Source: Cirrosporium novae-zelandiae
Lineage: Eukaryota
Length of the DNA: 64,000 nt
Assembly (NCBI GenBank): GCA_026023565.1
Contig: JAPETS010000008.1
Coordinates: forward strand, 682,001-746,000
Reading direction: 5' to 3'
A program made the position numbers and the translations under genes. This document shows, one piece after another, positions 12,781-45,273 of the stretch. Within the stretch, counting starts at the first letter, position 1, and each line of letters opens with the position of its first letter. The notes under the pieces were generated by a model. It searched no databases. It was not told the DNA's origin and saw only the letters and a list, made by a program, of their open reading frames with translations.

Positions 12781-13015
12781 AACTATCGTTATCGTTATCG
12801 GGATTTGGGATTTTGATAGATAGATAGGTAGCTAGGGTAGCTACCCCACCACCACTCACCACTCATCTCTTACCAACTGCACACTCTAATTCCAGGATAA
12901 GACAGGATAACAGCGCCACAAGGTACTTACAGTACTTACACTCTCTCTCCCCCCTCTCCTATCCCACAATGGGTTATCCGTTATAAAAAAAAAGGTTATC
13001 GGCCTCTTATCCGAA
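12781..13015. promoter_or_regulatory. GATA/CGG motif-dense divergent promoter (aldolase <- -> dehydrogenase)
   Basis: GTTATCGG at 12794 and 12995, GTTATCCG at 12973, CTTATCCG at 13006, and GGATAA twice near 12895-12910. Confidence 0.55.
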
Positions 13016-13433
13016 TCAATTGAGCTTAGGTTCATTCTTCAGAATTAAAGTTACGTCAAGTTCAATCCCCCCCTCCAACCCCTCTAAAATGAATCGGGGC
13101 CAATTTTTTTTTGTTAATTTGTGACTCCGTTATTATGTGTGGGTAGGTACCTATGTAAGTAGATAGCGTCACTTTTTTTGGTTCCACTCTGTGAGACCCA
13201 AAGGGCCTTTTTGCCAAGACTTGAAGGGCGTGTAGGATCTCCGTGTGTGACAGAACAAGGTTTCATCCAGAAAGATCTCATATCTAACAATTGACTTTTT
13301 TTCAAAAAAAAAAAAAATTTCCATTTGGTTTACTTGGTGTTTGTTTGTTGTATATTCATAACCAAAAGGCCCACCGAGGATATTTTGATATTTGAATTGA
13401 ACTTTTCATTTGTAACCTTGCTCCAAACAAAAC

Positions 13434-14411
13434 ATGACTGTCAAAAAACTTAAAATTGTCTGCCTAGACGGCTGTTACCTCCCTGTCCCGAGGCCCGATG
13501 TCGTGCACGAATATACCGAATATCCCAACACCAAGCCCTCCGAGGTGCTCTCGCGAGCCAAAAACGCCAACATCATCATCACCACCAAAGTGCCCCTCAC
13601 CGCCGAGACTATCAACGCATGCGCGCCGCTGGGGTTAGAGATGATCGCCATGATGGCTGCGGGAACGGAAAATGTGGATAAGGAGGCTTGTCATAAGAAT
13701 CATGTGCTTGTTACGAATGTACCCTCGGCCTCTGCGGAGTCGGTGGCTGAGCACGCGATTGCGCTTTACCTGGCTCGAAAGAGACGGATTGTGGAGCTGG
13801 ATGCTATGACGAAGCGGGGGGATGTTTGGAATATTAAGGGTACTATGACACATCATTTTGGTGGGCCGCCAACGGGACTGCGGTCGGACGTTATGGGGAT
13901 TATCGGGTACGGGGGATTGGGAAAGCGTATTGAAACGCTGGCACGGGCTTTGGGGTTGTCAGTACTCATTGCAGATCGTAAGGGAGCCAGACCAGAAGAG
14001 ACCCGAGAGGGACGAACCTCCTTCGCAGAAACAATTCAGCAGAGCACCGTTCTCGTTCTCGCCTGTCCGCTCAACAAGGACACCAGACACACGATCGGAG
14101 AACAGGAGCTGAGGGACATGCGCAAGGACGCCATCCTCATCAATGTTGCGAGGGGTGCCGTGGTGGACGAGCTCGCGCTCGCGATTGCATTGGAGGAACA
14201 CCAGATCGCGGGCGCAGCTACGGATGTCTTTGGAACGGAGCCAGCGACGATGGAATCGAGTCCGCTTCTGCAGAGGAAGCCGCCGAACCTGACGGTGTCA
14301 CCGCATATTGCGTGGTATGCGACGACGAGTATTGAATATCTGCAGGATACGGTTAAGGGAAATATTGAGGCGTGGGTTGCGGGGAAACCACGGAATATTG
14401 TGGTTGAGTGA
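13434..14411 (+). CDS. D-isomer-specific 2-hydroxyacid dehydrogenase (glycerate dehydrogenase/hydroxypyruvate reductase-like), intronless
   Basis: 325-aa ORF with the GIIGYGGLG Rossmann motif and the catalytic Arg/Glu/His in INVARG, DVFGTEP and SPHIAW. Confidence 0.93.
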   Translation: MTVKKLKIVCLDGCYLPVPRPDVVHEYTEYPNTKPSEVLSRAKNANIIITTKVPLTAETINACAPLGLEMIAMMAAGTENVDKEACHKNHVLVTNVPSASAESVAEHAIALYLARKRRIVELDAMTKRGDVWNIKGTMTHHFGGPPTGLRSDVMGIIGYGGLGKRIETLARALGLSVLIADRKGARPEETREGRTSFAETIQQSTVLVLACPLNKDTRHTIGEQELRDMRKDAILINVARGAVVDELALAIALEEHQIAGAATDVFGTEPATMESSPLLQRKPPNLTVSPHIAWYATTSIEYLQDTVKGNIEAWVAGKPRNIVVE

Positions 14412-15852: not shown

Positions 15853-17537
15853 ATGGATGATATTTCTGATCAGAGGTCCCGTCGATTAGACATCTCTCAA
15901 CTGATTGAAGAAAGCATCAATGCCCATACGCCCGCAATACAAAAGATAAATGACACAGTTCTTCTCTCCATTTTTTCTCTTAGTTAGAGAACATCGAATA
16001 ACTAATACTATTTGAGAGTAGATCTGGAGCAATCCCGAGGTGGCCTGGCATGAGAGAACAGCCCATGATACCATCTGCGACTACTTCGATTCTTTGGGCT
16101 CAGACTATAGCGTCCATCGACACGCATATGGGATCGAGACTAGCTTTTTGATCCAAGCCACCACGCTAGACTCTTCTATTCAGTCTAACCGCACTCGAAC
16201 GATAGTGTTTAATGCCGAGTATGATGCACTTCCCGACATGGTCCTTATACCGAATACCGATCCCCCCCAATACAAGCCGGCACATGCCTGCGGGCATAAT
16301 CTTATAGCTTCTGCATCTATTGCAGCCTTTATTGCTTGTTGGCAGGCGTTGAAAGAGACAACGTTCCAAGGCACGGTGAGACTTCTCGGTACTCCTGCAG
16401 AGGAGAGTGGCGGAGGAAAAATCAAATTGCTAGAAGCAGGTGCCTATAACAATGTCGATGCTTGCATGATGGTCCATCCGGGGCCGTTAACCTCCGATAA
16501 GAATCTGAGAGCAGTTTCTTTTACTACGAGCCTTGCCTCGCAAAGGGTAACAGCTGACTTTAAAGGGCTTGCTTCACACGCTGGATTCGCCCCTTGGAAA
16601 GGGAAAAACGCACTTGATGCTCTAGTGACCTCCTATGCCGCTATTTCAGCGCTCCGTCAGCAACTACACCCATCCCTCAGAGTATCTGGAATTATAACAA
16701 ACGGAGGGACCGTCGCAAATGTCATACCGGATCACACCGAGGCAGAGTACAGTATCCGAGCCGAATCCAGGAAAGAGTTGGAAGACCTCCTTGAAAAGAT
16801 CATCCATTGCTTTGAAGCGGGAGAACAAGCGGCAAACTGCACTGTGGATGTGGATGAGTGAGTGATTTCCCCTTCTCTTTTACCAAATCGCATGCGATTT
16901 ACATTATACTAACTCAACCTAGCACAAGACCCGCCTATTGGGAGATGATTTCCAATAAATGCCTTTGCCATGATTTCACACAACGCATGAATGAGTTCGG
17001 TGTCGATACGGTTTACGATCTACCCGAACTCACCAATGACGCGGGTGTATCCACAGACCAAGGCAAGATGAATGCACAATAGCATACCGAGGCGAGCCCA
17101 TTTTGGCTAACGTAGCAACTATAGGGAACGTATCTCATTTTATTCCGGCCATGCAGGCTGGGTTTTTCATCGACAGTGGAGATGCTATCAACCACATGCC
17201 CGCATTTGCAGATGCCGCTGGCACCATGGACGCATTTGAAAGAGCACTAGACTGTGGCAAGGGTCTGGCAGCTATGGGATTTGATGTATTAACCGATGCT
17301 GTGAAAGTCGCTCAAGTAAAGGATTCATATATGCTAGATATCTCTGCTAAGGCGGCTGCTGTTGCTCAAAATTATGGGAAAGAAGTCCCAACTCAAAAAC
17401 AGATTGACAATTTGCTGGCATCACCCCCATCCTTGTTTGAACCCCTACTTAAGAATCTTGAAATGGGAAGAGAACAGGTTATTGGAGCTCTAATGGCAGT
17501 CGATGCTTTCTTCAATCCAAAGAGAGGATTGCTGTAG
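15853..17537 (+). CDS. M20 amidohydrolase (Acy1L2/PM20D2-like)
   Basis: ATG at 15853; after intron 1 the protein reads IWSNPEVAWHE. Further motifs are NAEYDALP, HACGHNLI, GTPAEE, and STDQGNVSH, which is formed across a GC-AG intron at 17063-17124. Confidence 0.9.
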
Positions 17538-18053: not shown

Positions 18054-19543
18054 CTAATTTCCATACTTTTTCTCCACCTGGATGTTGTACTTCAGGAACG
18101 CATTTAGCAGAATCTCAGCGCTGGTAACGCAATCTTCTGGTCGTGCGTATTCCGATGCTTTATATTTGTCAGCTTGGGTGTTCTTGAATCCTGATATTTA
18201 AATCAACTTACGATGATGGCTCACACCGTCTCTACACCTTGTGAATAGCATCGCCGTGGGAATTCTAGTCGATGTATTTACACTAATGGGTTTATAGGTT
18301 AGAGGGATATCCTCCAAATTTATTGAAAGAAGAAACTTACCTGTCATGACCAATAGCTGAGGTCAAATCAATGGTACATCCCTTATCCCGACAGCTCTCT
18401 CTCAAACATTGGACCATGGTGGGATCAAATACTAGTGCCGGTTGTGTCCATGAAACTTCAATGTCTATCTTCAATCCATGCTGGGCTGCGATATCCGCAA
18501 AGGTCGATCTGACCATTTTTTCAATATCATCAATATCCCCATCCTTTGGAGCTCGGACGTCGATGGTGAAATCTGCGCTCTCGGCAATGGTGTTGATACT
18601 TTGAGGTGCTGATTCGATAACTGCGACGGTGGCCTTTGCATTCAGCTGAGCAAGCTTTTTTGTTACTATTTCATTCGTTTCAACTATCATCTTGGCAGCA
18701 CCAAGCAGAGAATCTTTACGCTGATCCATTGGGGTTGAACCGGTATGCTGGCCTCGACCTTTGATGGTAACTTTTAACCATCTAATCGACTGTACACCCA
18801 TGACTGCTCCTGCTGCCTGTTGTGCCTGATCTAGGATTGGACCTTGTTCGATATGGACCTCGAAATGGGCGAGAAGAGGGTTCTTTTGATATGAACAAGG
18901 CACGTCGCCAAGATATCCTGCTCTCTCTAGTTCCTCCTTCATTGTCACACCAAAACGGTCAGCTAGGGCATGGCCATAGTCCTCCGTGTACTTTTCTATC
19001 CAGACTCCAGACCCATGCATAGCTTGAGGGAACCGAGCACCCTCTTCATCTGCCCAGTTGACAATCGCCAAAGGGGCATAAGTCTTGATATTATTTTCAT
19101 GGACGACGCGCAGGACCTCGAGAGCGCAAAGTATACCTAATATACCATCATATTTGCCTCCAGTTGGCTGTGTATCTAAATGCGATCCTAGTGCCACCGG
19201 GGCAAGGTCATTGTTAATACCGGGTCGGATGGCAAAAATATTGCCCATGGTATCGATCTGAGACTCGGTCAGAAGATATTGACTACTTTAATCAAATAGT
19301 GCAACTCACCTTATGGGAACAGCCGCATTTTTTGGTTTGTTCCATGAACCAGTCTCGGACCAATTTGTCATCGTCGTTCATTGCTACTCGGTTCATTCCC
19401 CCATCTGGCGTACTAATTATCCAATATTCTTAGTTTGATCTCATTTCTTAACTCTCCGTGTCTTCTTACCTTCCCCATTGGCAAGACTCATCAAAGCTGG
19501 CGAGCATACGCTCAGCATTTACTTTCACATCCGGTAATGCCAT
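18054..19543 (-). CDS. M20 hydantoinase/carbamoylase-family amidohydrolase (beta-alanine synthase/allantoate amidohydrolase-like)
   Basis: Motifs GGMNRVA, GSHLDTQPTGGKYDGILG, NWADEEGARF, HFEVHIEQGP, HTGSTPM, SAIGHD and GVSHH. It ends ...KKYGN*. Confidence 0.92.
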
Positions 19544-20200
19544 CGTTTGAACAATTGATTTGGAACCTTTTGTCGCTTCAATTGCGGGAGTCCCAGGTCC
19601 TATATTAACAGCTACCTCGACGGCCATGATTAGCCCTCTGTCGGAAATAGGATCCACTTGGCCGCTATCAGATTGCTTACCCGCTCATGACCCGGCCGTC
19701 CACAATATTTGAATTTGTGAAGAAACTTATAGAATTATTTTTGAAGGAGCTGGCTTGGGGCAACAAGGAGTTCTCCTTTCACTACTGTGTCCATCAACTT
19801 GCGCCAAGGCACTCCCCTCAACTTGGATATGTTACTCTACAATTTATTTGTTATTGTCCGAATTTTGGGCGATAATAATCTCGGGTCTAGATTGGAGTTG
19901 GTGTTACGTAGGTGGGGTCGACGGATAAGAGCGCCGCTAGTCCGCGTCCCACCAGGCCCACTACGCCCACCTACACCCCACCCCCATCTTTAATCCCCTG
20001 CAATTCTGGCAAGCTTTCCTGCTGTCCAGTTTCAGTATCAATTTCCATTCACCTATCGTTGGTACCTCAAACCCAGATATGAAGTTCAACATAAACTATT
20101 TGGGGGACAAGGCGTCCTCCGCATCTTGTTGTGGGTTCCCTCTGGAAGTAAAAACTGTTTTAGTGCTTCCGCTCTATTGTATCAATGATATTTTGGCGGA

Positions 20201-23200
20201 ATGGCTGAAGTCCGAAGAACGGTGTTGTCCTGTGCTAGATGTCGAAGACGGAAGATCAAGGTATTTTTTCTATTTTTTCGTAATATGTTAAGAAAAAGTC
20301 ATGAGACCAATAAACATTTGAGCGAAATCATAATCTATTCATCTGGAGCTCCTCCACAATACCATCCCCAGTTTTCGGACCTCGGCCATCTCTCTGCTCT
20401 AGTTCGAATGCGTGGTTCTGATGATGAACCGTGAATATGTTTAAGCTGACGGCCGAACTAGTGTGACCGTAGGCTTCCAGCCTGTTCCGCCTGCGTTACC
20501 TCAGGGTCAAGCTGTGTGGGATTCAACTCGAAAGGTACTACTGAAGTTCCAAGGAGTGTTGTTTTGCACCTGGAAGAGGAGATTGCTCGGATAGAGATTG
20601 AGCTGGGCCATTGCGTTGAACACCCAGACAAACCAGGAGTTCCTATAGAATCTCCAGATGGACAACTCGATACCGAGCAGGTTCCTACATCTAATGGGCT
20701 GTCAGCACCCACCGACGGCGGACCTCTGACAATGTTAACAGACTCCGTCAAGGAATGCGTGATGGCTTCCCCGGAACTTGAAGCCATGATTATGGCAACA
20801 AAGCCACCCGGCCCTTCTATCTCAGATTCGGTATCAAGGATTCGTATGGGTCTGACACCGTCCCGCCCAGTTGTTCCGGCAGCCACCAGTGATAAACAAG
20901 GCCATCGGGGGTCTATCACCGCCCGACCAGCCCAGACAGAGCCAGGAACTCCTCTACTTTGCAGCGTATGTTGAAAAAGTGGAATATCCTAACAATCGAG
21001 ACTAAAAGTTTGAACTAGATACCTGGTAGCATCATCCATGGTTTAGTAAAGAAATATGTGACCCATATTCTTCCTAGCTGGCCACTACTTTATGAGCCAA
21101 CAGTTTGGGCACAATTGGAAACAACCTTGCAGCTAATTGACAAAACCCGAGGTTCTCTAAATCAATGGGGAATATTGATGGAGCCCCCAAACTATGATGT
21201 TTTGGTAATTCATCTTATTCTTGCAATTTCTGTAACCCTAGGGAGTGCACAGAGTGCCCATGAATCTCGTTGCATGGCTCTTTCGGAATCACTTTTCAAA
21301 GAAGGAATCACTCATATGTCTAATAAGCTTTATTTCCCCAATGACCTTGCCAACTTGCAAGCGACGCTTTTGATATTACAATATGCTTGTATCAATCCAA
21401 AGGCTGCCTCTGTGTGGATTCTTTCAGGTGCCGCGATGAGTAAGCCACTTCTCAAACTCAATATGAACTCAGATCACTGATAGCACTAGGAACTTGTGTT
21501 GAATTAGGAATACACAGGGAGGCATCTGAAAGTAACAATATGTATATGGATCCGGTGACTATGGATTTAAGAAGAAGAGTATTCTGGTTTGCTTATTGCA
21601 TGGATCGCTCCATTTGCTCTGCCCTACAACGGCCTCTATCAATACCAGATTCGGCAATTGATGCTTGTTTCCCTTCACTACTAGGCGACCAAAGTATATC
21701 AGGATATGGCTTTGATCAGCGTGGAAGTATGAGCAAGATTTCAGCGTTCCGATGGATTGAATATTATCAATTACAATCTTCGATGATCGAAGTACACTTC
21801 CAAGGAAAGCCGCTAGAAACTGGCCAAAGCTGGGATGACTGGCTTCAGCTGATAGAACGCAGACTGCGCCAATGGTATCAAAATGATCCTGATAGTGATG
21901 AGGAAACAGAGTTTGCATTCTGGCATGGCCTTGCTATTCTACATCGGCCTTCCCCAAGAGTTCCATCCCCTTCTGCAGGGAGCCTCTTGACTGCTTTTGA
22001 AGCGGCCTCGGCATCTGCCAGGATATATCATAACCATCTTCTTTCTGGATTCTATCGACGTCCATGGCTTGCTGCCCACCATACCTTGGAGATGTCAATG
22101 GTTGTTCTGTACTGCCTTCGCAATGGGTTCGAACACATTTCTAAGAAATTCAAGGCTCACGAAATATTTGAAATGACCAAGCTATTTACCTCTAATTTTC
22201 TGACGATTTCTCAACAAGGATGGCCGGAAATTTCGGAATATGCAGCCATCTACGAGAGGTTACTAGGGCCTCTGTTGGAATCGGTATTTACAAGATCAAA
22301 TAATCCAAAAGCGATGGCATTTGGTCTAGCACAAGATGAAGAACTCTCCAGACTTCTATATCCCGGACCTGCTCACCTCGAAAAACTACGGTTTGGCACC
22401 ACAAAAGAACCATGTTTAGATATATTTCCTCCTTTCAACATCGAAATGTTTGATTTTGAAAGTGAGTATCATGATCTGATTGCTAGTACGAGAGAAGAAA
22501 TGTTTCACGCTATACCTACAGCCTTCCCAGCATCAACACCTGCGATCGTTATAGACGAAGGAAATAATTCTAAACTTTCCTCTCCTTCGTCCTCCACCCA
22601 AAGGGGTGATGTAGAAAATGAGCAAATTTATGCAGCATTAAAACTACTCCCAAGTTGCCTGAGATGCCGGAGACTAAGAAGGAAATGCGACCTTCGACTT
22701 CCAGGGTGCAAACACTGTATGCAGGTCGGGGTTAGCTGTAACTTCAAGGATCCAGCTCTGGAAGAGGATATTTCGAGAAGCTATGTTCACGCCTTGAAGC
22801 TGAGATACGAAGGCCTAGTTGCAAAGAAGGCTGCTAGCCTTGGTCCAGTCATTACATCAACTCTGCCTGGGAACGATAACTGTGAGATGAATGACACTAC
22901 AGCCGCAATGCTAATTGCTTCAATCAAATTACCTCCTGGGAGTTATAGGGCATCATTTGATGGACACTATCGCATTAGGGCTCCTTTTGGTCACCGATTC
23001 GCCTTCTTCGGTAAGAGCTCAACCTACGCGCTATGCACAGAAGTCCTTTCTCTAGCGTCTTTCAAGAACCCTACTCAGCGTGCCTATCCTTGGCTTCCAC
23101 CGCTGCCGAACCATTTTGGGTTCAATGATAGGCCTAGCATGATAGAGTTGCCACCAAATACCACGATATTAGATATGCTTACACTATTCCAATCCACTAT

Positions 23201-24452
23201 CAACGTTATATATCCTTTTATAAACGGAAGCAAAATCCAAGAGGACTTGGACGTTTATCTTACATTGCACAGCCAAAAGATGTTTAACCCTGCTTATTTA
23301 AGCCCAACTGAAGCTTATCAACACTTCCGAGTCACAATGATGTGTGCGATTGCATGTGTTATGGAATCACGACATGATCAGAGTTTTGCTGCTTGCGCTG
23401 ATACATTTTTCGCAGACGCTGAAAAATGCGTTGAATCTGTAACATCCGAGACCGCACCAGACTCATTACAAGCTCTGTTACTCCTTGTCGTATTTCATCT
23501 ATTTCAACCCCAACGGGGGGAGATATGGACGCTTCTGGATTTTGCCTGCCGCTTGGCTATCGAACTTGGATATCACACCGAACAAGCCCTACCATATGAC
23601 GAGAATCATGTGCAAGAATTACGTAGGGGAACTTTCTGGTCTTTGTATACTATAGAGCGCATAGTCGGACAACTCTACGGGCGCCCTTCCGATTTACCAG
23701 AACCTATAATCACTACGGGCTATCCTTCAATCCTGTCGTCTGTGCTTCCAACTGACCAGGAGACGGTACAAATGGTTTCATCCGCACATCATTATCGCCT
23801 TGTTTATCTACGTTCGGAGATTTACAAGGAAACATATCTTTCTGCTACCCCTATACATCATGATCTTTCATGGCTAGAGGAGCGTTACATACCACTACTA
23901 CGATGGCACGAAAATGCAAAGACCCGGGAGTCGCTGGAAGGTGTAGGCACTGTCACTTGCAATGTGGCATATCACTCTACCGTTATTTTTCTATTTCAGC
24001 CGTTGGTCCTTGAAACTCTAGCCGCTGCAAGAAAGACCAATTCACTATCGGGACCAAAAAGACAAATACCTGCTGATAGCTACTGGTCTGCTCGAGAATT
24101 GATTAGATGTTACGAGAGAGTAATTCGGGCCCCAAACCATTCACCCCTCGGAATTTATCCAATGACGTTTATGTCTGCGCATTATGTCGTTCTTGCAGCA
24201 GCGACACTTTTAGCTCACTGGCTCCTTGCGGTGGATAAACAGACAGAGCATCTGCAGCCTCTCTACGAAGTCATCAGACAACGAATACCCCAAAGCATTG
24301 TCGACTCTGAGATATTTGAACTTTCGCACTCGACTGTAGCTGTTCTTTCTTGGTGTGGGGAGCGATGGAAGGGCTTGTTGGGGATGCTGGACATCTATCG
24401 ACGGGTGTCCGAAGAGGTCTTGCCAGAGTTTATTCGAAATATGGGCGAATAA
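20201..24452 (+). CDS. Zn2Cys6 transcription factor with two tandem Zn-cluster + fungal TF-domain modules (~1315 aa)
   Basis: Exons are 20201-20260, 20462-20965, 21019-21439 and 21490-24452. Cluster 1 is CARCRRRKIK|CDRRLPACSACVTSGSSC; cluster 2 is CLRCRRLRRKCDLRLPGCKHCMQVGVSC at 22656-22739. The two MHR motifs are ELGIHR..LRRRVFWFAYCMDR and ELGYH..LRRGTFWSLYTIER. Confidence 0.9.
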
Positions 24453-25198
24453 GGGAGTATATGATGATTTAACTGCTGGGCTGGTTCAAGTCAAATATTT
24501 ATTATGTTATCTTCTTTTGTTATGAATTGTGTCGGTCGTGAACTACCGAAATCATGATTGATGAAAATAAAAGAGGGGGGTCTAGAAAAGGATAATACTC
24601 CAAGGAGGGTAAATTGCTATTTTTGCTTATCGAGACCGTTTTGATACTATGTGAAAATGCACAAGGTTATGCGAATTCAATAAAAATCTGCCATCAAAGA
24701 CTTACAAGTCGTAGATGCCTTGAATGTGATGGAATGATGTCATATCAGATAGCTACCCGAGTAGGGTTAGAATATCCCTGGCCCTTATCGTTCGCCAACG
24801 GAGGTGTTATCGGCCGGCGGCCCCCAACTTCAGTCTGACCTCTTAACAAAAGATCCACTCAAAGATCTCGATTCTCGACCTAATCCACGAGCTAGATCAT
24901 GTCCGCAAACCATGATCATATCCCCATTCCCCCAATATCCGTCAGGAACACCATGGTGGGGTCGATAAGCTTCCCTCTTTTTCCCTCGAAGAAGTCCGCT
25001 CAAAGCTACCAACGGAGAACCACGCTCTTTTTTTCTTATTGCCGTGTAACAACACCTGAACCATCAACCAACAATATGTATCGCATTAACTCTCTTGGTC
25101 TTCTTCATCAGAGGCGCTGGGGATTCCTCTTTCACTTGTTTTCTTTGTGGACCTGAATTCACCTCATCTCGTAGAAGACCCCTATCACCACGCCCAGC

Positions 25199-26565
25199 AT
25201 GACCGACAAAAAAATCGCCATCATAGGTGGTGGCCTCGGCGGCATGTCCTTTGCAAACGCAGCCCTGTACCACAACCTCACCAACATCGCCCTATACGAG
25301 CAAGCGCCCCAATTCAGCGAAGTCGGCGCCGGCGTCAACATCTCCAGCAACGCCCTCCGCATCCTAGACGCCTACGGCCTCAAAGACAGCATGACCCGGA
25401 GATCCTCACACGATCCTCCCTGCTGGATGGACTACCGGCACTACAAAACAGGAGAGTTTCTAGGCCAGATTGACGAGCTCGGGGAGCCCACCAGCCGGCA
25501 GATTCACCGGGCGCATCTGCTAGACACTCTAAAGGAGCGGGTTCCCTCGAGCGCAATCCACACCGGGAAAAAACTCATAAACATGCGGAGCCTAGAATCC
25601 TCCGGTGGGGGCTACGAGCTCCAGTTCGCAGATGGCACAACCGCAAATGCAGATCTCGTTGTCGGGTGCGACGGTATTAAAAGCAAAGTACGACAATACA
25701 TGGGCATTACCGACCACCCAGACTACTCGGGCCAATGCGTATACCGCGGCTTCGTCCAGTACGAACACCTGCCCTCAGCCACGGCAGCCCTCTTAAGAAA
25801 AACCGTCAACTTCCGTGGCCCGCGCCGCCACGTACTGACGCTCCCCGTCGGAAACGAGGAATCCAACACCGCCCAGGTTGGCATCATCGTCTTCGTGACA
25901 GAGTCTCTGGATTCCTGGAAATCGGAAAGCTGGATGGCCCGTGCGAGTATTGGATCTCTGGAAGCGCATCTTGATGGCTGGTGTCAGGAGGTGCAGGATA
26001 TTCTGGAGGGGCTGAAAAGGGGGTCGGGGGATGGGATGGTGCTGAAGCAAACGCTGTATGTGAGAAGTCCAGTGGAGAAGTGGTTCGAGGTTCAAGAGAC
26101 GCATCCCGAGTGTGGGGTCGTGCTGGTGGGCGACTCGGTGCATTCGACACTACCACATCAAGGCAAGTGAACCTAACTTTCTCTCTTCCATCCCTTCAAC
26201 CTAATCCAACCATATTTCACAAAACTAACAAACCACCCACAGGTCAAGGCACCTGCATGGCCATCGAATCCGGCGCCTGCCTAGCCCGAATCCTCTCCCA
26301 CTTTTTCTCCCACTCCCCCTCTCCATCCCTCCACGCCCCCCTATCCCTCTACAAATCCATCCGAAAACCCCGCACAGATCGTCAAACCCTGACGTCATTC
26401 CAAACCGGAAAACTGGCTTCTGCGGAAATTATGGAGGGAGAGGAGGAGAGCGGGATTGGGATCGACTCGGAGGCTTTGAGGGAGAGGATGAGGTGGCTGA
26501 TGGAATATGATTTGTTTAGGGATGTAGATGAGAGGGTTGGTGGGGGGGGCGAAGCGAGGTTGTAG
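25199..26565 (+). CDS. FAD-dependent aromatic monooxygenase (salicylate hydroxylase/6-hydroxynicotinate 3-monooxygenase-like, group A)
   Basis: Motifs IAIIGGGLGG, EVGAGV, IHRAHL, VGCDGIKS and LVGDSVHSTLPHQG|QGTCMAIES. GC-AG intron at 26163-26242. It ends EARL*. Confidence 0.93.
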
Positions 26566-27591: not shown

Positions 27592-28945
27592 TCACTTCTT
27601 TTTACTAAATTCAATAGCAATCCCCACCGCCTCCTCCAACCTATCCGTCCCCTTCCCCCCCTCCCCCACGCCCAAACCCAAAACCCCTTCATCCCACCCC
27701 CCTTTCTCATCATATAACGTCCTCCCCTCAGTCCAAATCCTCCTCAACGAATACACCGCCGCCAATGGCTCCCCACCTTTCCAAGCCCTCTCCTCCAACT
27801 CCCGCAGATGATCTAGGGAAGTATATTTGATGGACCAGGGGGAAGATGTTTGGCGCTCGAACTCGGCGACGATTTCTAGGGGTGTGGTGATGAAGGAGTG
27901 AAGTTTTAGGATGTGGGATTTGGTGGTGGGGGGTTGGGAGAGGAGGGTCTGGAGGAGGAAGTTTGCTACGCTATGTGTTTTTTGGGTTTGGTTAGGTGGC
28001 TGTTTGGAAGGGGGTGGGGGTAGGGAAAGGAAGGGATAAGAAAGGAAAAAAAAAAAAAGGACTTACTCCCGACAAGTACAAAACGCAACCCTCCCCTTTC
28101 CATCCCCCAAAACCACCGCCTCCCTTCTGTGCACATCAAACGACCCCGCCTCCACCGCCGCCCTTCCACTCATATCCGAAAAATACATCGGCGGCCTCGG
28201 ATCCGCATACGGCCCCGTAACCAAATACCAATACTCCAACCTCCTTCCATTCTCCCCCGTGGTAGCAGCAGCGACCTCGGCGGATTTCTGCTCCAGCCAC
28301 GCGCGCACTTTCAGTTTGGCTTGGTGGGGTTTTTCGTGTGCGGAGGTCGCATCGAAGGCGATGTCGGTGCCGTATTCGGAGGGGATGAAGCGGTGGATAG
28401 TGGGGGTTTGGGCGGCGAGGGTTATTAGGGGAATTTGGGCGAGGAGGGCGTCACGGCCGAGGGCGCTAATTATGGTGTCGATTCCTGGGGGGGGGGGGTT
28501 AGTTTTTCGTTTTTTTTTTTGGCAAAAGGGGATGGGATGGGAACGGGGAATGGGTGATTTATATATCTCCCTCTTCCTCCCTTCCTCCCTCCTCCTCCCC
28601 CTACAGCAACCCTGAACAACCACCACCACCAAAAAAGCATCCCCAACAAACAAAACAAAACCAAAAAAAAACCCACAAACCTCTATAGGCCGCCCCTACA
28701 CTCTCCAAATCCCCCAAATCCCCCACAAGAATCTCCGCCCCCTTCCCCTTAAACCCTTCAATCACCTCTTTCTTCCTCTCAGCCGTATCCTGTGAAGTGA
28801 AAATAGCAATGCGCTTGAAGGGGGGCGGGGTTGCGTTTAGGAGAGCAGTGGTGATGTAAGATCCGATTTTTCCGGTTGCGCCTAAGATTAGGATGTTTTG
28901 GACTGGGGAGGTCGGGACGGGTGGAGAGGGGGAGGAGGAGGACAT
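27592..28945 (-). CDS. NmrA-like/isoflavone reductase-family atypical SDR
   Basis: Motifs ILILGATGKIG, GIDTIISALGR, RFIPSEYGTD, HQAKLKVR, YLVTGPYAD and YSLRRIWTEG. Two introns inferred. Confidence 0.88.
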
Positions 28946-30498
28946 TGTTGTGGGTCTGGTTGTGGTTGTAGTTGTGGTGGTGGGGTTTTTGATGGTAGCA
29001 GTGGGGGGAGAAAAAGAAGAAGAGGGGGAATAAGAAGCAGCAGCTGTAGGATCTGGGGGGAAAGGAAATTGAGAGAAGCAGTAGGGTTTTGAATTGTACA
29101 TTTTGTGGCTGGAGGGTTTGAAGTTATATAGACCATATATGAGTGAAGTATTTACTGGTTAGGTTGTAAGGTATTTTTCTTTTTCTTCTATTAAGACGTT
29201 ATAATTACGTGCTTACTTACAAAGGGCGTACCCTTGCATGTGGCATGTATTTCCGTATGTAGGTAGATATGGTAATCTATGTTTTTAATCAATCAATTAA
29301 TATCGCTCGGGGAATACGCGTTAATGAGGTTATGGTTATGATTATAGTGGGGAGGGGAGTGGGGGGGATGTTGGCTTCCTTCACCCTCCAACCGACCAAC
29401 CTCATAAGTTCATAAGTTCATAACTTACTGTGTATATGTCACAATAGAAGAACATTGATACCAATGTGACCAATCACTAACCTGGTATTTATGGCATCGG
29501 ATAACAATGTAGATATCTATATGAAAAAAAAAGATACTGTAAGTTAGACTAGTTTGTTACGGATTTGCATAATTACATGTTTGCATCGTTTGCTGTATTA
29601 TATTTTATCAAGAAGTCTTTAATTACTTAGTCTAAATAATTCAACTATAGCTAAGTAAGTGTACAAACAGGTATCTAGTTATACGAATTGCTAATGTTCA
29701 TGTTCTCTCCCACAGTAACCCAGTCTTAGACCGAAGGACGGACATCAACGCCTCCTCTGGTCCCCTCTTTCTTATTCGCAAGAACCAACGATCGATCTCT
29801 TATCCAAACTGCCCCACCATCGCCCCTGCACCCCCACTTTCCTAGCTATCTTCTTCCATAAACAAAAACAAGCTAACCCTTGCCTGATAATATTCGAGGA
29901 TGGCCTATGGCCTGCGCTTTGTGGAGAGAGAGAGGGGGTTGTGACAGGGAAGAGGTAAGCTAATTACTAGGAGGAAAGAGTGGGAGGGAAGAGCAAGAGG
30001 GGAAGGCCGTTTAGATCTTCTCCGACGTGGATCTCCGATGGAAGGTCTATGTGTGTATATGCATGCACGCATGTATCCAATGACCAATAGCCCATTTCTG
30101 ATTGATCCATTAATCAAAAGAAGAACCTGATTAGCTACAGTACCTAGCTAGTTAGCTAGGACATCTCCATCTGCTCCCCTCTGTCTTCAAGAAAGATGCG
30201 GAAGAACCTTGGCTTTTTTTTTATATTTTAGATGAAAGAAAGAGAGGGTTTGCTTTCTTAAGGGATAATATATACTAGTCTCTCTCCTCATTTTTTTGGA
30301 GGGTTTTTGAAACTTCAAGTTTCTATACACATACACATGCAGTAAAGGGGGATGTTATATCATTATTTAGGTCGTTCGTGATATAAGATATATAGCTCCT
30401 ATTTCAGAAAGGCCTTCTTCTTCTTCTTCTTCTTCTCCAAATCGAAACGAACACCCACCCCCTCTCTCAACTCCAACCATATCAACACTCCAACCACC

Positions 30499-31635
30499 AT
30501 GGGCAAAGTCGTCGCCGCAGTAGGCATGTCACACGCCCCCGGCGCCCTCGCCTTCCCCGAAACCTGCAACGCTCCCCAACGCACCGCAACCGAAAAAGCA
30601 TCCGCCGCCCTGGGCAAGACCCTCACGGACTCAAAGCCCGACGTCATCTTCGCGTTCCTGGACGACCACTTCGAGAACTTCTACCGGAACCTGATGCCGA
30701 ATATTAGTATTAGCGTGGCGGAGACGCACGAGGGCCCCGCAGATCAGTGGATGGAGACGCTGAGGATTCCTAGGAAATACCAGTTTCCGGGGTGTCCTGA
30801 GGTTGCGGAGATGGTGCTAGAGAGTGTGGTGGAGCAGGGATTTGACTGGTTTGTTTGGATCCTTTTTTTGTTGTTGTCTCGGCTTGATGTTTAGGAAGAA
30901 AAGGATGTCCAAGGAAGTAGAGCTTGTCTTGCAGATTGACTAATTAGCTAACTATTCCCCTCCCTTAGTGCTCGCACCGGTCCCGTCGAATACGGCAACA
31001 ATCTCCTAATGCCCTGGCTGCTAATGAACCCCACCCTCCCCCAAACCACACCCATAATCCCCATCTTTATCAACGTCTTCACGCCACCCCTAATCAAATA
31101 CTCACGCGCCTACGACTTTGGTCTCGCGATACGGCACGCGATCGAAACGGCCCTCCCACCCACCCTCCGCTGTGCCCTCCTGTGCACGGGCGGTCTCTCC
31201 CACTGGCCCCCCTACTGGAACGAGCACCAAGCCAACCCCGCCGACACCTTCCTGAACCGCATGAAAGCGTACCAAACCCTCGGAAAGCCCTACCTAAAAA
31301 CCGACCCGAACCTCTTTGTCGATTTCGATAACTATGAGATCGAGATGGCCGCCAAGAATGAGTATCCGTTGAACTCGAAACATCCGCTTGTGAATGAGGA
31401 GTGGGATCGTATGTTCATGGAGAAGCTTTGTGGAGGGGATAAGGCGTTTTTGAGGGGAATGACGTATCAGGAGGTGGAAGAGCAGGCGGGGCATGGCGGG
31501 CATGAGGTGCTGAATTGGGTTGCGTTAGCCGGGGCCATGAGGGGAGAGTCGGCGAAACTGCTGTGCTATGAGCCTGTTGTGGAGTGGATTTGTGGAATGA
31601 CTTATGTGGATTTTGAGGTGCCGACTGTGGAGTGA
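30499..31635 (+). CDS. Class III (LigB-fold) extradiol ring-cleavage dioxygenase, PydA-like
   Basis: Motifs VGMSHAPG, FLDDHFENF, EYGNNLLMPW, TGGLSHWPPYW and GHGGHEVLNW supply the Fe ligands His/His/Glu and the catalytic His. One intron at 30849-30968. The PydA-subfamily assignment is from recall of the family signature and needs an HMM check. Confidence 0.85.
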
Positions 31636-40098: not shown

Positions 40099-42225
40099 TT
40101 ACAAATCTTTAAATTCATAATGCGTCCGTAAATATTCTCCATAACGATTGAATAGGATCGGAATCGGAAGAAGCGCCACACCAACAAATGCCAAGATCGA
40201 GTTACCCCAGCCATAGCCGAGGGCGTCGTACATGGTCTCGCCGGCAAGAGGGAGAACTGCGCCGACCACACTTCGGAGGATTGTATTTGCTGCGAGAGCC
40301 GATGCAGCCCAAACGGTGAAGGCGTCGACAAGATATGCTTGGACGCATAAAAACACAATGATATTACCAAGTCCTACCCAAAATGTCCCGATCTTACATT
40401 CATGTTAGCTAGGGGCTCTGTTCACTAGGGACTAAGGAAATAACTTACCATCGGGAGAATCCAATGGCAATGATACTCGGCGGTCCAGCCATACCAGAAA
40501 AGACCAATAGGAAGTCCAAATGCGGAGATGACCATTGGAGGGAGACGATACTCGGGTTTCAATACTCCATCTGCCCCCGCTCGTTTCTTCAGGATTCGAT
40601 CTGAAATACGTCCATTGATCAAAACACCCATCATAGAGCCTATTCCCATCGCGATGTATGCGAGGCCTGCAATTGACGTTATGACCACTTCTTTTCATGT
40701 CAGAGAATTTGTACTTACCAACAACAGTATCAGAGAAGTGATATGTACCCTGGAAGACCAAAGTAAATGTCGTAAATAGAAGATACAGTATGCCATAGCA
40801 GACGGCAATATAGATGGACAAAAGACAGACAATAGGGGAAAGCACTAGAAGTTTCAAAGGTCTCCAGATGGCACGCTTAAAGAGGTCCTTGGAGCTAAGA
40901 CCGACATCGAGTCTGGAATGAATGGCGGGATTGTTCTGCTCCTTACGGAGCTTCCTTGCCTTCCGCTCTAGAATAGTAACTGCGCTTGTTTCTCGCATGA
41001 AAACGAGGCACAACACAGTCAAGATACCAGAGATGATGGTGAGAAGCCAGAACACCCATCTCCAACCTGCGGCCGCATTCAAAAACCCTCCAATGATGGG
41101 TCCCACAATGGGGCCAATCATGGGGCCCATGGAGAAGATTGCCAGGGCCCTGCCTCGCTCTCGCTGAGTGATGAGGTCAGCGACAGTGCCACCACCATTA
41201 GCGATAGGTGCAGCACCAAACCAGCCTTGGCAGAATCGGAATACAATAAGCATATTGAGACTCGTGGCCTCTGCACAGGCAATACTAAATGCTGCATACC
41301 CAAGATTACAGATGTGATAAATAGGTACACGTCCAAACATCTCCGACAGAGGCGCGAGCACGATAGGACCAGCAGCAAATCCAAGGACGTAGACTGACAC
41401 GACAAATTCACTAAGAGTAGTAGAAGATGATCCAAATTCCCTCATCAGGGTGGGAACACCAGGGGCGAAAGCCGATGACCCTAAAGGACTAATTGGATAG
41501 GACCGTTAGCAGAGAACTCGGATGGGAAAATTACGGAAGCCTACGTTAAAAAAGTCAAGCACTATATCTACATTAGCATTACAGCGGACGATGCATATCA
41601 ATGCGGCACTTACAGAAACAAGAGCAATGTTAATCCATTTTATTTTAATAGTCCAATTTAATGGGTTTTCGGGGTCATCAGGACCGTCCCACCAGACTTC
41701 ATCAGGGTCAACTACTTCAACAGCTGTCTTGCTGGATCCATGGCTCGCTACACGAGCCGCCAATACACCTTGCGATTTCTCACTGGCTGCCAAGGAAGGC
41801 CGACGGTTTCCGGCTTGGCTTCGCCGACGTGATACTGACTGCCGTCGAACTTTTTCACCTTCGGCCGTAAGGATATAGCCCTCATTAGAAGGAATATCGG
41901 CGTCATGACCCTCACATGCAGCTAATTCTGATAAAGTTCGTTCAAGTGGTTGCAGTCTCTCATGAGTGCGGGAAGGGGTAGGCTGTAGCGGAGGAAGGTC
42001 GTCCTCCTCGTCTGGTGAATGGGCTCCGGTGAGAGGCCGCTGGCCCTCTCCTGATGATTCACTACGTCGACCGGTAATGGATTGGAATTTAGCGGCCTCG
42101 TACTCTTTACTTGGTGTTCCATGATCGCTATCGCTAGAAGTGGCGTCTGTATTATGTTCATCCCACGAGGGGAACCCCTGCTTTTCTATATCTTGATCTT
42201 TGGGGTCTTGCATTGTCCCACCCAT
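40099..42225 (-). CDS. MFS drug:H+ antiporter (DHA1 family)
   Basis: Motifs WDGPDDPENPLNW, APLSEMFGR, GGGTVADL, GPMIGPIVGPIIGG, PEYRLP and YLVDAF..AASALAA. Confidence 0.93.
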
Positions 42226-44120
42226 GGTTGTGGATATAGGTAGCTGGAAGTTGCACCAACGTTAGCACGGCGGAATTCATTATGTTGAACAAGCTAATGT
42301 TCTTGCTACATATAGTGTCTACAGAGCAGTCACCTCGGCTCTATCCAACAAGGGATAGTTATAGAGTGAGACCTCAAGTCAGATATCAGGTATCCCAACC
42401 CCATATTTGGTGGAGAGACATAAGATCCTAACCGTACATACTCGCAGACTGCGTCACTTGAGTTATGTTGCCGGATATGGCATCTAGTTGTTGATAGTGG
42501 AAAGGGACCGTACCTTGGATGATGGGCTTGAAATATATGCAGTTCACACCAGCGGCTGTACCCACTGGCTGGGCGGCGGAATAGCGGAACACTGAACGAT
42601 CTGCGGTAGTTTCTCTTCGTCTGGATATTAAACTCGAAGTGGTTGCAATGTCAACAAACGTGGATAGCAAGTAGCATTAAAAGCTATGAGAATATGAATA
42701 CCTAGGGAATGGTAGTTGAGGGAAGAAGTTTAGAAAAGAGAGAAGAAAAGAAAAGAAAAGGTTGGAACAGCCATATCTGTGGCCATGACCATCTACAGAT
42801 TTCATTCAATTTCAAAGATGTGCGCCTGATGGGTTAGAGACCGGCTCCGGTGTCTACTGAGTAGATGGTGCCATTATGCCGGGTCCTCGAGGTTGAGTTG
42901 TGCAAAACGGTGAAAAATATCAAACAGTTATGATGTGGGAGTAACTGTTATTGGAGATCGGGATTTGAGGGCGGTAGAATTGACAGCTGTACCATATAGA
43001 AATAGCCATATCGAGTATCAGAGCCGAGCTTCAAGGCTATGTAGAAGTGTCCATAAGGTCCATAAAGTCCATAGTGTCCCTATCACCGCCAGGGGAATTT
43101 CTTGGCTTTTTGGACGGCATCATCTCCGTGGACCTTTAGAACGACGTTTGAGTCATTGTACGGTTACAGTTTGACAGCTTGCCTTGACGACCGTTCATCA
43201 ATTGGGCTTGCATCTCGTGATAATTCTTCTCTCTAGAGTGGGCGAATGTCCATCGAACCAATGAAAACCTCTCTTCGCGCCGTTCGAGCCGACTTCCGCC
43301 ACCCTGGTTCAGCGCGGTGTCTGGGGGAGAATCAAGGGGGGTTTTTTTAAGGATGTTGTTTGATCTGGGAATTTTTTATTTTCGAGAAGATCTGAGATAA
43401 TTCCATCTGAAATAAAAACAATTAATTAATTATACCGGTAAGGATTACTTTTTCCAGTTCCATCTGTTCTGCTGAGGAATCTAAATCTCTAGGCGGAATT
43501 CTCCCGCTCTCGCTTCAACCCCCACGTGATCCTCCAAGCTTTCCGTCCTCTCAACTTCCGTTCGGCACGGGGTCCTACAGACACCGCTAGAATCGTGATT
43601 GCAAATCAAATCACGTATTTTTCAATCCTTGCAATTCCGGCCATTTCTATTCGACGACCAAGCATATCTTTCTCTTAACCTCCTATTTGCTGACCAAAGG
43701 CTGACAACCTCCACAACCTCCACGATTTACAATGATTGTGTAAATATTTCCATCTCATTTATAATCTAGCAAGGACATCAACAATAACAATAATAACAAC
43801 GGAACTGAATGACTTAATCATAAAATAATACTTCGTAAATAAGTACCATAGGCTTTAGTTTATTTCCTTGAAATACAGCCCTCCTCATCCTCCATGAATC
43901 CTATTGAAGACACACAAAATCATAGAGAGCTTCCCGCCTCTAGTACAATATTGAGCAAAACTACTCTTCTAGCATTGACAATCCCACTGTGGCGTCTATC
44001 CGAAGGATCATCCCCTCACTGTTGAACCATCATCCATCACCTCAAGTCGCCAAGCCACCTTCGCCATCAGCGGATAACTCCAAATTATCTACATTATCGT
44101 CTAGTTTATCAGCTCAGTCA

Positions 44121-45273
44121 ATGGCCCTGCCTGTCTATTTCGTGGGTCATGGAGGCCCAAATGTCATGTACGAGACAGATCATCCCGCCTATAGCAAACT
44201 GGGGGAGATTGGCCGAGAAATTACTACCAAGGTAAAGCCAAATGCCATTGTTGTCGTGAGTGCGCATTGGCAAGCAGGTGGATCAATGGGCCTCGGTGGA
44301 AGTGGCCAGGGTGCAAGGGTACAGGTAAATGTTGGAGATGGAAAAGAGGGGTTGATCTATGAGTGAGTCCAAATTGTCCTGCTCTTGATATGAATCCAAA
44401 TTGAGAGTCCCATATCCCTTCACCTTATTCAAAGGGGCACATATTATAGCCGGAGCGTAGTGGTCCGATACATATATCCCTATTTCCTATATGGTATCTT
44501 GTTCGATTGTAAAGTTATTGCTTTATTGCTTGTCTTTTGCCTAGAATGGAGAGGAGTCATGAGCTAATCAGTCAAATTCTAGCTTTTATGGTTTTCCAAA
44601 ACATTATTATGAGGAAAAATTCCCCTATGTTGGCAGTACCGAGGTTGCTGGAGAAGTTATGACCAAGCTGCAAAAAGCTGGCTTTAGTGTCGAACCCACC
44701 AAGAGAGGTTTGGATCATGGAGTCTGGGCTAGTTTCAAATGCCGTAAGTTTACTATCAGATCTCCAAGGGAAAATGTAACAAAGCATGAACCTGAATTCA
44801 CCATTTTAGTCTTTGATCTCGAGAGGAATCCCATCAAAGTTCCAATCGTCCAAGTTTCTCTTCCCTCCACCACTACAGATCCAACAACCCATTACGCCAT
44901 GGGAAAGGCCCTTGCTAGCCTCCGAGCTCCACCCTATAACTATCTCATTGTCGGCTCAGGAATGGCTGTACATAATCTGAGAGATTATATGTATGCCTTA
45001 TCCGATGAGCCCATGCCGTATACCAAATCTTTTGACAAGGCACTCAAGAATGCATGCGAAATAGATCCAGCTCAGAGGGAAGAGGCAATGGGTAAGCTGC
45101 TTGATAGGCCTGACACAAGAAAGGCGCATCCCATTCTAGACCATTTGTGGCCCATTTATTTTGCAGCTGGTGCTGCAGATGGGGAGAAGGGAAAGAGAAT
45201 CTGGACCTTCCAGGAGGGATCTATGAGTTGGGCGCAGTACAGATTTGGAAATCTAAATTCGAGTACATTGTAG
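44121..45273 (+). CDS. LigB-fold aromatic ring-opening dioxygenase (DODA/YgiD-type)
   Basis: Motifs VYFVGHGGP, VSAHW, FYGFP, RGLDHGVW, GSGMAVHNL and AHPILDHLWP. Introns at ~44363-44582 and 44744-44809. Confidence 0.9.

Follow-up and report, generated by a model that had tools for sequence, protein, structure and literature searches.

A predicted PydA-type ring-cleavage dioxygenase in a conserved catabolic gene cluster of the fungus Cirrosporium novae-zelandiae

A 64,000-nucleotide stretch of DNA (hereafter the window) from Cirrosporium novae-zelandiae, a Pezizomycotina ascomycete of the class Xylobotryomycetes (contig JAPETS010000008.1, positions 682,001 to 746,000), carries at positions 30499-31635 a real fungal gene with one intron. 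Judged by its sequence, the product is probably a class III (LigB-fold) Fe(II) extradiol dioxygenase of the PydA subfamily, its catalysis being predicted. PydA is the dioxygenase for 3-hydroxy-4-pyridone from the pyd cluster of Rhizobium sp. TAL1145, and the most likely function of the fungal protein is the extradiol cleavage of a presumed 3-hydroxy-4-pyridone-type substrate supplied by a neighbouring monooxygenase. PydA-type enzymes have so far been known from few bacterial genetic studies, and full-text literature searches brought up no account of a fungal one. A cross-kingdom survey of 2025 reports just one LigB clade from fungi, that of the DOPA type (PMC12420386).

Results and Discussion

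Relationship to bacterial PydA

The spliced product of 338 amino acids was searched against the NCBIfam profiles, and its best match was NF009913 (PRK13373), a PydA-type model, at 416.9 bits, the next profile scoring 109. Models for MhpB, gallate and protocatechuate 4,5-dioxygenases gave 66-109 bits against cut-offs of 286-837, the MhpB models alone reaching 72-109 bits against cut-offs of 286-549. A preliminary description of the gene, made from its sequence alone, had expected a PydA model to rank above those for MhpB and LigB, and the profiles rank in this order, with a score that lies below the NF009913 cut-off. This shortfall (416.9 against the curated value of 462) weighs against the assignment, as does the name of the model, which is only 'putative dioxygenase'; the dioxygenase of Rhizobium sp. 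CB3060 (P0076), which represents PydA here, scores 427.7 bits and is likewise under the cut-off.

The CB3060 dioxygenase, encoded on plasmid pCB3060_4 of a strain with Leucaena as its source and which we take to be the same as TAL1145, is 48% identical to the Cirrosporium protein over 333 residues with 3 gaps. Its gene is followed by those for an alpha/beta hydrolase, a binding protein, an ATP-binding cassette (ABC) ATPase, a permease, a FAH-family hydrolase and RidA. DDHFENH and EWICGM are given as conserved regions of PydA in excerpts of PMC3637104; EWICGM is identical in the Cirrosporium protein, and its DDHFENF matches six of the seven residues of the other, the final Phe being present in the fungal members displayed.

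The family is a narrow one, since a HMMER pass over 1.84 billion representatives (50% identity) returned 1072 matches at E<=1e-3 and just 31 at E<=1e-30, with identity stepping down after the PydA group from 49% (a bacterial PydA representative) to 40% and lower. An ingroup with P0076 and the Cirrosporium protein was separated from the outgroups in both of the trees described below, with support values of 99 (Shimodaira-Hasegawa-like approximate likelihood ratio test, SH-aLRT) in the first and 94 in the second. The predicted grouping with PydA-type enzymes rather than with MhpB or LigB, as originally proposed, is thus supported by the profile scores (416.9 against at most 109 bits for MhpB), the identity to the CB3060 protein and the EWICGM motif. 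The two proteins share a narrow clade, the level of their NF009913 scores, the DDHFEN and EWICGM stretches and an active-site replacement (GNN for DHG) considered in the next section, whereas the Cirrosporium gene differs in being eukaryotic, in its one intron and in the fungal signatures DDHFENF and SHWPPYW.

The DOPA-type (DODA) LigB enzymes of fungi belong to the same Pfam family, yet have no significant pairwise similarity to the protein. One such gene, matching PF02900, lies about 13 kb from the dioxygenase in the window and adjoins a major facilitator superfamily (MFS) transporter; the two dioxygenases had been described as quite unlike each other, and BLASTP agrees, with no significant similarity between them (best E 0.086).

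Catalytic residues and predicted structure

The protein carries the motifs GMSH12AP, LDDH57FENF, EYGN127N128, TGGLSH195WPPYW and GHGGHE296, and both of its exons match Pfam LigB (PF02900; 28.1 bits for exon 1 and 68 bits for exon 2, gathering cut-off 26.3). In HMMER alignments the three iron ligands H12, H57 and E296, a 2-His-1-Glu site, and the catalytic H195 fall on the corresponding positions of DesB and MhpB; the LigB-type ligands SH, DDH and GHE and the GGLSH motif, earlier reported as intact, were therefore all found. The replacement of the usual DHG motif by EYGNN could also be verified: G126-N127-N128 stands opposite D-H-G of DesB and MhpB in the alignments, and the second catalytic His of these enzymes is therefore Asn127 here.

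H12, H57, N127, N128, H195 and E296 are invariant in all 19 aligned fungal and bacterial members, and His is kept at position 127 in the nearest outgroups (P0125-P0127, P0130, P0138 and P0144). Gln takes the place of Asn127 (EFGQN or EYGQN) in one fungal subgroup with Paecilomyces, Botryosphaeria, Massarina and unnamed members (P0026, P0036, P0037, P0048 and P0049). The GNN-for-DHG replacement is a family trait derived in the present analysis and not part of a published definition. In LigAB, DesB and MhpB, two histidines serve as acid/base catalysts towards the hydroxyl groups of the substrate and the adduct with oxygen. 3-Hydroxy-4-pyridone would bind as a mono-anionic O,O-chelate with one hydroxyl proton to lose, and the second His would therefore be dispensable. 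Asn in place of His at the second catalytic position would thus offer a defined handle on the adaptation of the LigB fold to a pyridone substrate; an entry for H124F DesB is present in PDB.

The AlphaFold2 model of the protein (predicted local distance difference test, pLDDT, 88; predicted TM-score, pTM, 0.90) has a LigB fold, the best Foldseek matches of the model being LigB (1bou_B, E 2.8e-19), MhpB (8k04_A, TM-score 0.78/0.83) and DesB, with identities of at most 22%. No solved PydA-type structure was found in PDB by the Foldseek search, where the best identity was about 22%. Within residues 197-257, about 50 have no counterpart in DesB, yet the alignment with MhpB runs straight through them. 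The long insert after SHWPPYW, listed earlier among the features of a PydA, is thus real with respect to DesB, and by these alignments it is common to MhpB-type enzymes and no speciality of PydA.

MhpB (PDB 8k04) accordingly resembles the Cirrosporium protein in its LigB fold, in the same helical insert after GGLSH and in the best TM-score, and differs in sequence (about 21% identity) and in having the DHG His where the fungal protein has Asn. LigB and DesB (PDB 1bou and 3wku), the top PDB sequence matches, align at the iron ligands and the GGLSH His, and differ in retaining the DHG His and in lacking the insert of about 50 residues, with chains of 302 and 418 residues, respectively. LigB works only together with a distinct alpha subunit, and the DesB chain is extended at its C-terminus.

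Exon structure and fungal origin of the contig

Unspliced read-through of the exon 1 frame meets a stop at 30892-30894, and the intron has a GC content of 0.40 against 0.56-0.60 for the exons. The two exons are colinear on NF009913 (exon 1 on profile positions 1-116 and exon 2 on 118-330), which confirms the splice, and the spliced product is the database protein P0003 of C. novae-zelandiae (M1834_009326, 'MAG: hypothetical protein', where MAG denotes a metagenome-assembled genome), with 100% identity over exon 2. The single spliceosomal intron of the preliminary description, with its fungal splice signals, is therefore borne out (Table 1). The same site is uninterrupted in two other fungal loci, a 46-kb fungal metagenome contig (L081; 10348 to 10352) and L103 (3017 to 3021), and the intron is therefore lineage-specific. 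This fits a gain later than the arrival of the gene; of the earlier phrase 'domesticated by intron gain', the gain is thus compatible with the data, which are no evidence of domestication.

The source record is labelled as a MAG, and the sole sequencing run with this stretch may be the source sample itself, as would be compatible with bacterial contamination or a chimeric join in the assembly. No RNA data set was listed as containing the stretch. Such an origin is exceedingly improbable in view of the spliceosomal intron with fungal splice signals, the 882,684-bp contig with fungal neighbours (a Zn2Cys6 transcription factor, EF3 and GH76) and the recurrence of this gene order elsewhere, in independent contigs of fungi and in genomes of named fungal species.

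Gene cluster and its conservation

The genes of the window were listed by Pfam scans of the open reading frames (ORFs) of at least 110 residues (Table 1). Among the genes upstream of the dioxygenase, the M20 amidase P0402 has beta-alanine synthase and carbamoylases as its nearest solved relatives, the nearest solved structures for the monooxygenase P0282 are those of salicylate hydroxylase and 6-hydroxynicotinate 3-monooxygenase, and the Zn2Cys6 factor is likely to be the regulator of the cluster. EF3, GH76, the MFS transporter and the DODA-type gene lie downstream.

Table 1. Features of the window, with positions counted from its first nucleotide
Feature	Position	Strand	Remarks
Malate synthase	2177-3794	-	
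Amino-acid permease	4688-6384	-	
Class II aldolase/adducin-family protein	11478-12213	-	Two ORF pieces; nearest solved structures NovR decarboxylase and TqaM
D-2-hydroxyacid dehydrogenase	13416-14411	+	Pfam 2-Hacid_dh
Second M20 amidohydrolase	16022-17537	+	TIGR01891-type, aminoacylase/hippurate-hydrolase-like; no counterpart in L081
M20 hydantoinase/carbamoylase-family amidase, main ORF	18337-19287	-	P0402, 450 residues; N-terminal exon upstream, outside these coordinates
Zn2Cys6 / Fungal_trans transcription factor	21444-24452	+	Pfam
FAD_binding_3 flavoprotein monooxygenase	25175-26565	+	P0282, 428 residues; Pfam
NmrA-like (isoflavone-reductase-like) gene	27592-29158	-	With introns; divergent from the dioxygenase
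PydA-type dioxygenase gene	30499-31635	+	Two exons, one 120-nt intron; 338-residue spliced product
Exon 1	30499-30848	+	ATG at 30499; codons 1-116 and two bases of codon 117; carries H12 and H57 of the iron site
Spliceosomal intron	30849-30968	+	120 nt; 5' GTTTGT, branch-like GCTAAC, 3' TAG
Exon 2	30969-31635	+	TGA at 31633-31635; EYGNN (N127), GGLSH195, MhpB-like insert, E296, EWICGM
MFS transporter	40435-42261	-	
DODA-type LigB gene	43944-45273	+	PF02900

The dioxygenase of L081 is intronless and 66% identical to that of Cirrosporium, and the contig further encodes FAD_binding_3, Aldolase_II, 2-Hacid_dh, M20 and NmrA families, two transcription factors and a 2-oxoglutarate oxygenase. L103 has Aldolase_II, NmrA (-) and LigB (+), with the NmrA and dioxygenase genes in a divergent pair as in Cirrosporium. 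Identities to the L081 copies are 64% for the monooxygenase, 61% for the carbamoylase-type M20, 35-44% for the dehydrogenase and 38-50% for two transcription factor ORFs; those to the copies of both loci are 61-73% for the aldolase-like and 43-48% for the NmrA-like proteins.

Linkage in named species was assessed by locus tags, taken from lists of cluster members and from searches in which the monooxygenase and the M20 amidase served as queries. The monooxygenase, the M20 amidase or both are 2-12 genes away from the dioxygenase in Cirrosporium (009322/009324/009326) and seven other named species: Exophiala spinifera (PV08_03970/03972/03973), Verruconis (PV09_08199/08203/08205), Sporothrix curviconia (_000263/_000270/_000275), Rhinocladiella (Z518_10674/10677), Stachybotrys (S40288_09050/09055), Neonectria (QQX98_007842/007847) and Phialocephala (PAC_18079/18086). 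Since the tags lie few genes apart in these species, the cluster is conserved across classes. The catabolic cluster is real, and its synteny is kept in other Pezizomycotina. The suggestion that the dioxygenase anchors a cluster holds to the extent that the cluster is real and is conserved in L081 and L103; the neighbours differ from the bacterial pydB-E set.

The fungal gene has no adjoining pydB-type alpha/beta hydrolase, ABC transporter or FAH gene, and its partners are instead the FAD monooxygenase, the M20 amidases, the aldolase-like and NmrA-like proteins, the 2-hydroxyacid dehydrogenase and the Zn2Cys6 regulator. No ABC importer was found near the dioxygenase among the ORFs of at least 110 residues, nor was the pydB-E set. 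The PydB hydrolase and the PydCDE transporter are regarded here as a context trait and not as defining PydA.

A widespread occurrence of the monooxygenase/M20 cluster without the dioxygenase was also considered. It is weakened by the lists of cluster members, according to which Exophiala spinifera, Cytospora, Stachybotrys and Neonectria have the dioxygenase as well. No Penicillium member was present among the matches listed.

Seven intergenic regions were compared for a site of a common regulator, in the form of CGG-N-CCG pairs or of 9-mers present in more than one region, and nothing consistent was found. The 10-mer CGGATAAGAG occurs exactly at 13004-13013 and 19922-19931, in the two divergent promoters between the aldolase and dehydrogenase genes and between the M20 and transcription factor genes, and was rejected as a regulator site since its count with one mismatch in the window is 4 against 3.3 by chance, a count reached in 44 of 100 shuffles.

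Third-position GC is high in the dioxygenase (0.71-0.75), aldolase-like (0.70), monooxygenase (0.69), dehydrogenase (0.62) and NmrA (0.61) genes and low in the M20 amidase (0.43), EF3 (0.46), MFS (0.47) and DODA-type (0.42) genes, the GC content of the window being 0.45. The contrast among neighbouring genes (11478-31635) could reflect codon bias linked to expression, or part of the cluster could have come in later from a fungus richer in GC. Malate synthase and amino-acid permease genes lie just upstream of the cluster, and the permease could take up a substrate of the amino-acid type, for example mimosine.

Predicted pathway

A joint role can be sketched for the products of the cluster, to which we give a little under an even chance of being right as a whole. 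The FAD monooxygenase would hydroxylate, perhaps decarboxylatively, a compound of the 4-pyridone or hydroxypyridine type to a vicinal diol resembling 3-hydroxy-4-pyridone (3,4-dihydroxypyridine). The dioxygenase would bind this diol bidentately on Fe(II) and cleave the ring beside it to an N-acyl or formimino open-chain acid, from which the M20 amidases would free the nitrogen-bearing fragment; the amidases, the class II aldolase-like (decarboxylase-type) protein, the NmrA-like reductase and the 2-hydroxyacid dehydrogenase would then take the product to central metabolites. A pyridone with substituents or a carboxyl group, instead of plain 3,4-dihydroxypyridine, may be the true substrate, as suggested by the carbamoylase-type amidase and the decarboxylase-like aldolase homologue.

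Bacteria provide a precedent for the pairing of the two oxygenases. According to excerpts of PMC7356986, 4-hydroxypyridine catabolism proceeds from a FAD monooxygenase forming 3,4-dihydroxypyridine to a ring-opening dioxygenase and then a hydrolase, and in the kpi pathway of Arthrobacter sp. IN13 and that of Agrobacterium NCIB 10413 a Pfam01494 FAD monooxygenase feeds the ring-opening dioxygenase, as proposed for the fungal cluster. The bacterial pathway differs from it in that the IN13 ring opener, KpiC, is of the amidohydrolase fold and not of LigB type, and in its downstream alpha/beta hydrolase and FAH, which have no counterpart in the fungal cluster. Relatives of the dioxygenase were collected from a set of 185,579 species genomes, where 445 stretches encode them, and the best 80 of the 445 gave 79 loci. 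Sixty of these (L002-L061), almost all full-length, encode proteins 44-55% identical to the Cirrosporium protein and come by their record titles from Alpha-, Beta- and Gammaproteobacteria, Actinomycetota and Dormibacterota. Twelve of the 60 loci contain a FAD_binding_3 monooxygenase, directly downstream of pydA in the six best matches shown. This pairing, joined by a FAH hydrolase in loci such as Erwinia L004, mirrors the 4-hydroxypyridine route of PMC7356986.

Several observations weigh against the proposed pathway. According to PMC3637104, even the enzymes of Rhizobium and Agrobacterium had not been purified; the 'PydA activity' rests on genetics, and no enzyme of the fungal clade has been assayed. 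The closest solved relatives of P0282 act on hydroxybenzoates besides 6-hydroxynicotinate, and the bacterial monooxygenases linked to pydA are just about 30% identical to the fungal one. The carbamoylase-type M20 amidase of the cluster would fit a ureido rather than an N-formyl product, and neither an alpha/beta hydrolase nor a FAH was found by the Pfam scans of window ORFs of at least 110 residues.

The protein might instead be an ordinary catechol-type meta-cleavage enzyme acting on 2,3-dihydroxyphenylpropionate, protocatechuate or gallate, or on another diol without nitrogen such as 3-hydroxy-4-pyrone, in a cluster that degrades a plant phenolic acid. Automated names of homologues ('protocatechuate-dioxygenase subunit beta', '2,3-dihydroxyphenylpropionate 1,2-dioxygenase') point this way, as do the rank of MhpB as top structural match by TM-score, with the insert common to both, and the neighbouring monooxygenase, whose closest relatives are salicylate hydroxylase and hydroxylases that act decarboxylatively on hydroxybenzoate and vanillate. 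However, the MhpB, gallate and protocatechuate models score 66-109 bits (cut-offs 286-837) against 417 on NF009913, the DHG His of DesB and MhpB is Asn in the protein and its clade, the one clade member that has been studied by genetics is a hydroxypyridone enzyme, and the two amidases of the cluster suggest a nitrogen-containing product. A catechol-type function is therefore regarded as unlikely, at somewhat over one chance in five.

For the pyridone pathway, a wider extrapolation is offered tentatively and with distinctly less confidence than the joint role above. Many Pezizomycotina (about 45 named genera, among them black yeasts, wood saprobes, endophytes and tree pathogens) might mineralise 4-pyridone or 3-hydroxy-4-pyridone metabolites, such as 4-hydroxypyridine derivatives and mimosine-type allelochemicals, under Zn2Cys6 control, with a bacterial PydA recruited into a fungal cluster that has its own downstream chemistry. 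If true, an N-heteroaromatic ring would here be opened for the first time by a LigB-type enzyme of a eukaryote, and the route would be the second fungal pyridine-ring pathway, beside the nicotinate (hxn) route of Aspergillus nidulans. The conserved cluster would provide a testable entry to the breakdown by moulds of pyridone and hydroxypyridine compounds from plants, microbes and agrochemicals, as well as a clean case of the wiring of a bacterial ring-cleavage enzyme into a eukaryotic regulon.

Evolutionary origin

Two maximum likelihood (ML) trees were inferred by quick searches. The first (LG+G4) comprised 96 rows, namely 88 of the 120 listed matches (those of at least 310 residues with both terminal motifs) and 8 more distant representatives. 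The second (LG+C20+F+G4 with posterior mean site frequencies, PMSF) comprised 90 rows: 56 of the 60 bacterial loci (those with a clean high-scoring segment pair of at least 310 residues), P0076, 20 named fungi, L081, 7 unnamed sequences and 5 outgroups, leaving out L103 and N-terminally truncated proteins. In the first tree, all the named fungal rows group into a single clade of 23 rows (97 SH-aLRT), which lies within a series of bacterial and unnamed sequences. The fungal clade of the second has a support of 98, and of 100 with three 332-residue metagenome proteins (P0050, P0052 and P0053) added as its sister lineage or lineages; this larger group is sister (89) to a Bordetella MAG and two alphaproteobacterial MAGs, nested among bacteria. 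When rooted, the ML trees place the fungal clade within lineages of Pseudomonadota, Actinomycetota and Dormibacterota.

The fungal homologues come from about 45 named genera in five classes, all in Pezizomycotina, and no named homologue from outside this group was found among the matches listed. A further tree of 46 fungal and 8 outgroup rows, inferred by a careful search, recovered the fungi as monophyletic (100/98), with groups for Chaetothyriales/Phaeomoniella, Leotiomycetes, Pleosporales and Sordariomycetes. The grouping is mostly by order or class with few clear exceptions: Eurotiales with Botryosphaeriales, Pseudocercospora inside Sordariomycetes and 'Elasticomyces' beside Exophiala viscosa. 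Class labels change 7 times on the tree against a minimum of 4. Monophyly of Dothideomycetes is rejected (delta lnL 336, approximately unbiased (AU) test p 7e-78), for a group that was chosen after seeing the tree and with a contribution from the Elasticomyces row.

With good though not complete confidence, these patterns can be read as a single old acquisition from a bacterium by an ancestor near the base of Pezizomycotina (leotiomyceta). The gene would then have been passed on vertically for the most part, with numerous losses and a few fungus-to-fungus moves, and the Cirrosporium intron would have been gained later. Two findings weigh against the acquisition: the AU test keeps a tree in which the 57 named bacterial rows are monophyletic (delta lnL 12.6, p 0.265), and the closest sequences to the fungal clade, P0050, P0052 and P0053, have no assigned organism. 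The latter combine the fungal-like DDHFENF with a bacterial-like SHWPPVW; no close match to them was present among the fetched loci (at most 62%), and the ESM Atlas clusters are generic LigB.

The bacterial monophyly left unrejected by the AU test would also accommodate a gene of old eukaryotic or fungal descent that Pezizomycotina alone have retained, or an acquisition by bacteria from fungi, as would the occurrence in five fungal classes with a grouping mostly by order or class and the long outgroup branches. This is judged rather improbable, since no named homologues occur outside Pezizomycotina among the matches listed, the bacterial members span at least three phyla with a divergence deeper than that of the whole fungal clade, the more distant named relatives are bacterial (for example Rokubacteria and Methylomirabilota at 28-31%), the fungi are nested inside bacteria in both ML trees, and identities of 48-55% to bacterial proteins are high for a split between bacteria and eukaryotes.

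The old horizontal acquisition proposed in the preliminary description is hence favoured by ML trees with one fungal clade (97, 98 and 100/98), nested in bacteria in the first two, and is statistically unsecured at p 0.265. A broad fungal distribution following the species tree had been named there as speaking against it; the distribution is indeed broad and mostly ordered by taxonomy, with the exceptions and the excess of label changes given above.

Transfer of the whole cluster from bacteria was considered and dropped. When 15 neighbour ORF pieces of the window were compared by tblastn with the 60 bacterial loci and 57 metagenome loci, matches were obtained for the FAD monooxygenase (12 bacterial and 2 metagenome loci), the 2-hydroxyacid dehydrogenase (4 loci) and the MFS transporter (2 loci) only; the aldolase-like, M20, NmrA and transcription factor genes had none in these loci.

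The protein labelled Elasticomyces elasticus (Dothideomycetes) shares a 90% cluster with Rhinocladiella and Exophiala proteins and pairs with Exophiala viscosa (100/99; proteins P0571 and P0576). This points to a very recent transfer, or to an assembly that is mixed or carries the wrong label.

Among the bacterial loci, that of Erwinia (L004) has the order ABC transporter, FAH, PydA and FAD monooxygenase, and by this gene content looks like an undescribed operon of the 4-hydroxypyridine type. One tight PydA subclade unites Enterobacterales (Erwinia, Klebsiella, Raoultella, Sodalis and Acerihabitans) with Martelella (L004, L005, L008-L013, L053 and L025). Zavarzinia marina carries two divergent PydA-type copies (L007 and L038) about 10 kb apart on one contig, which belong to different subclades.

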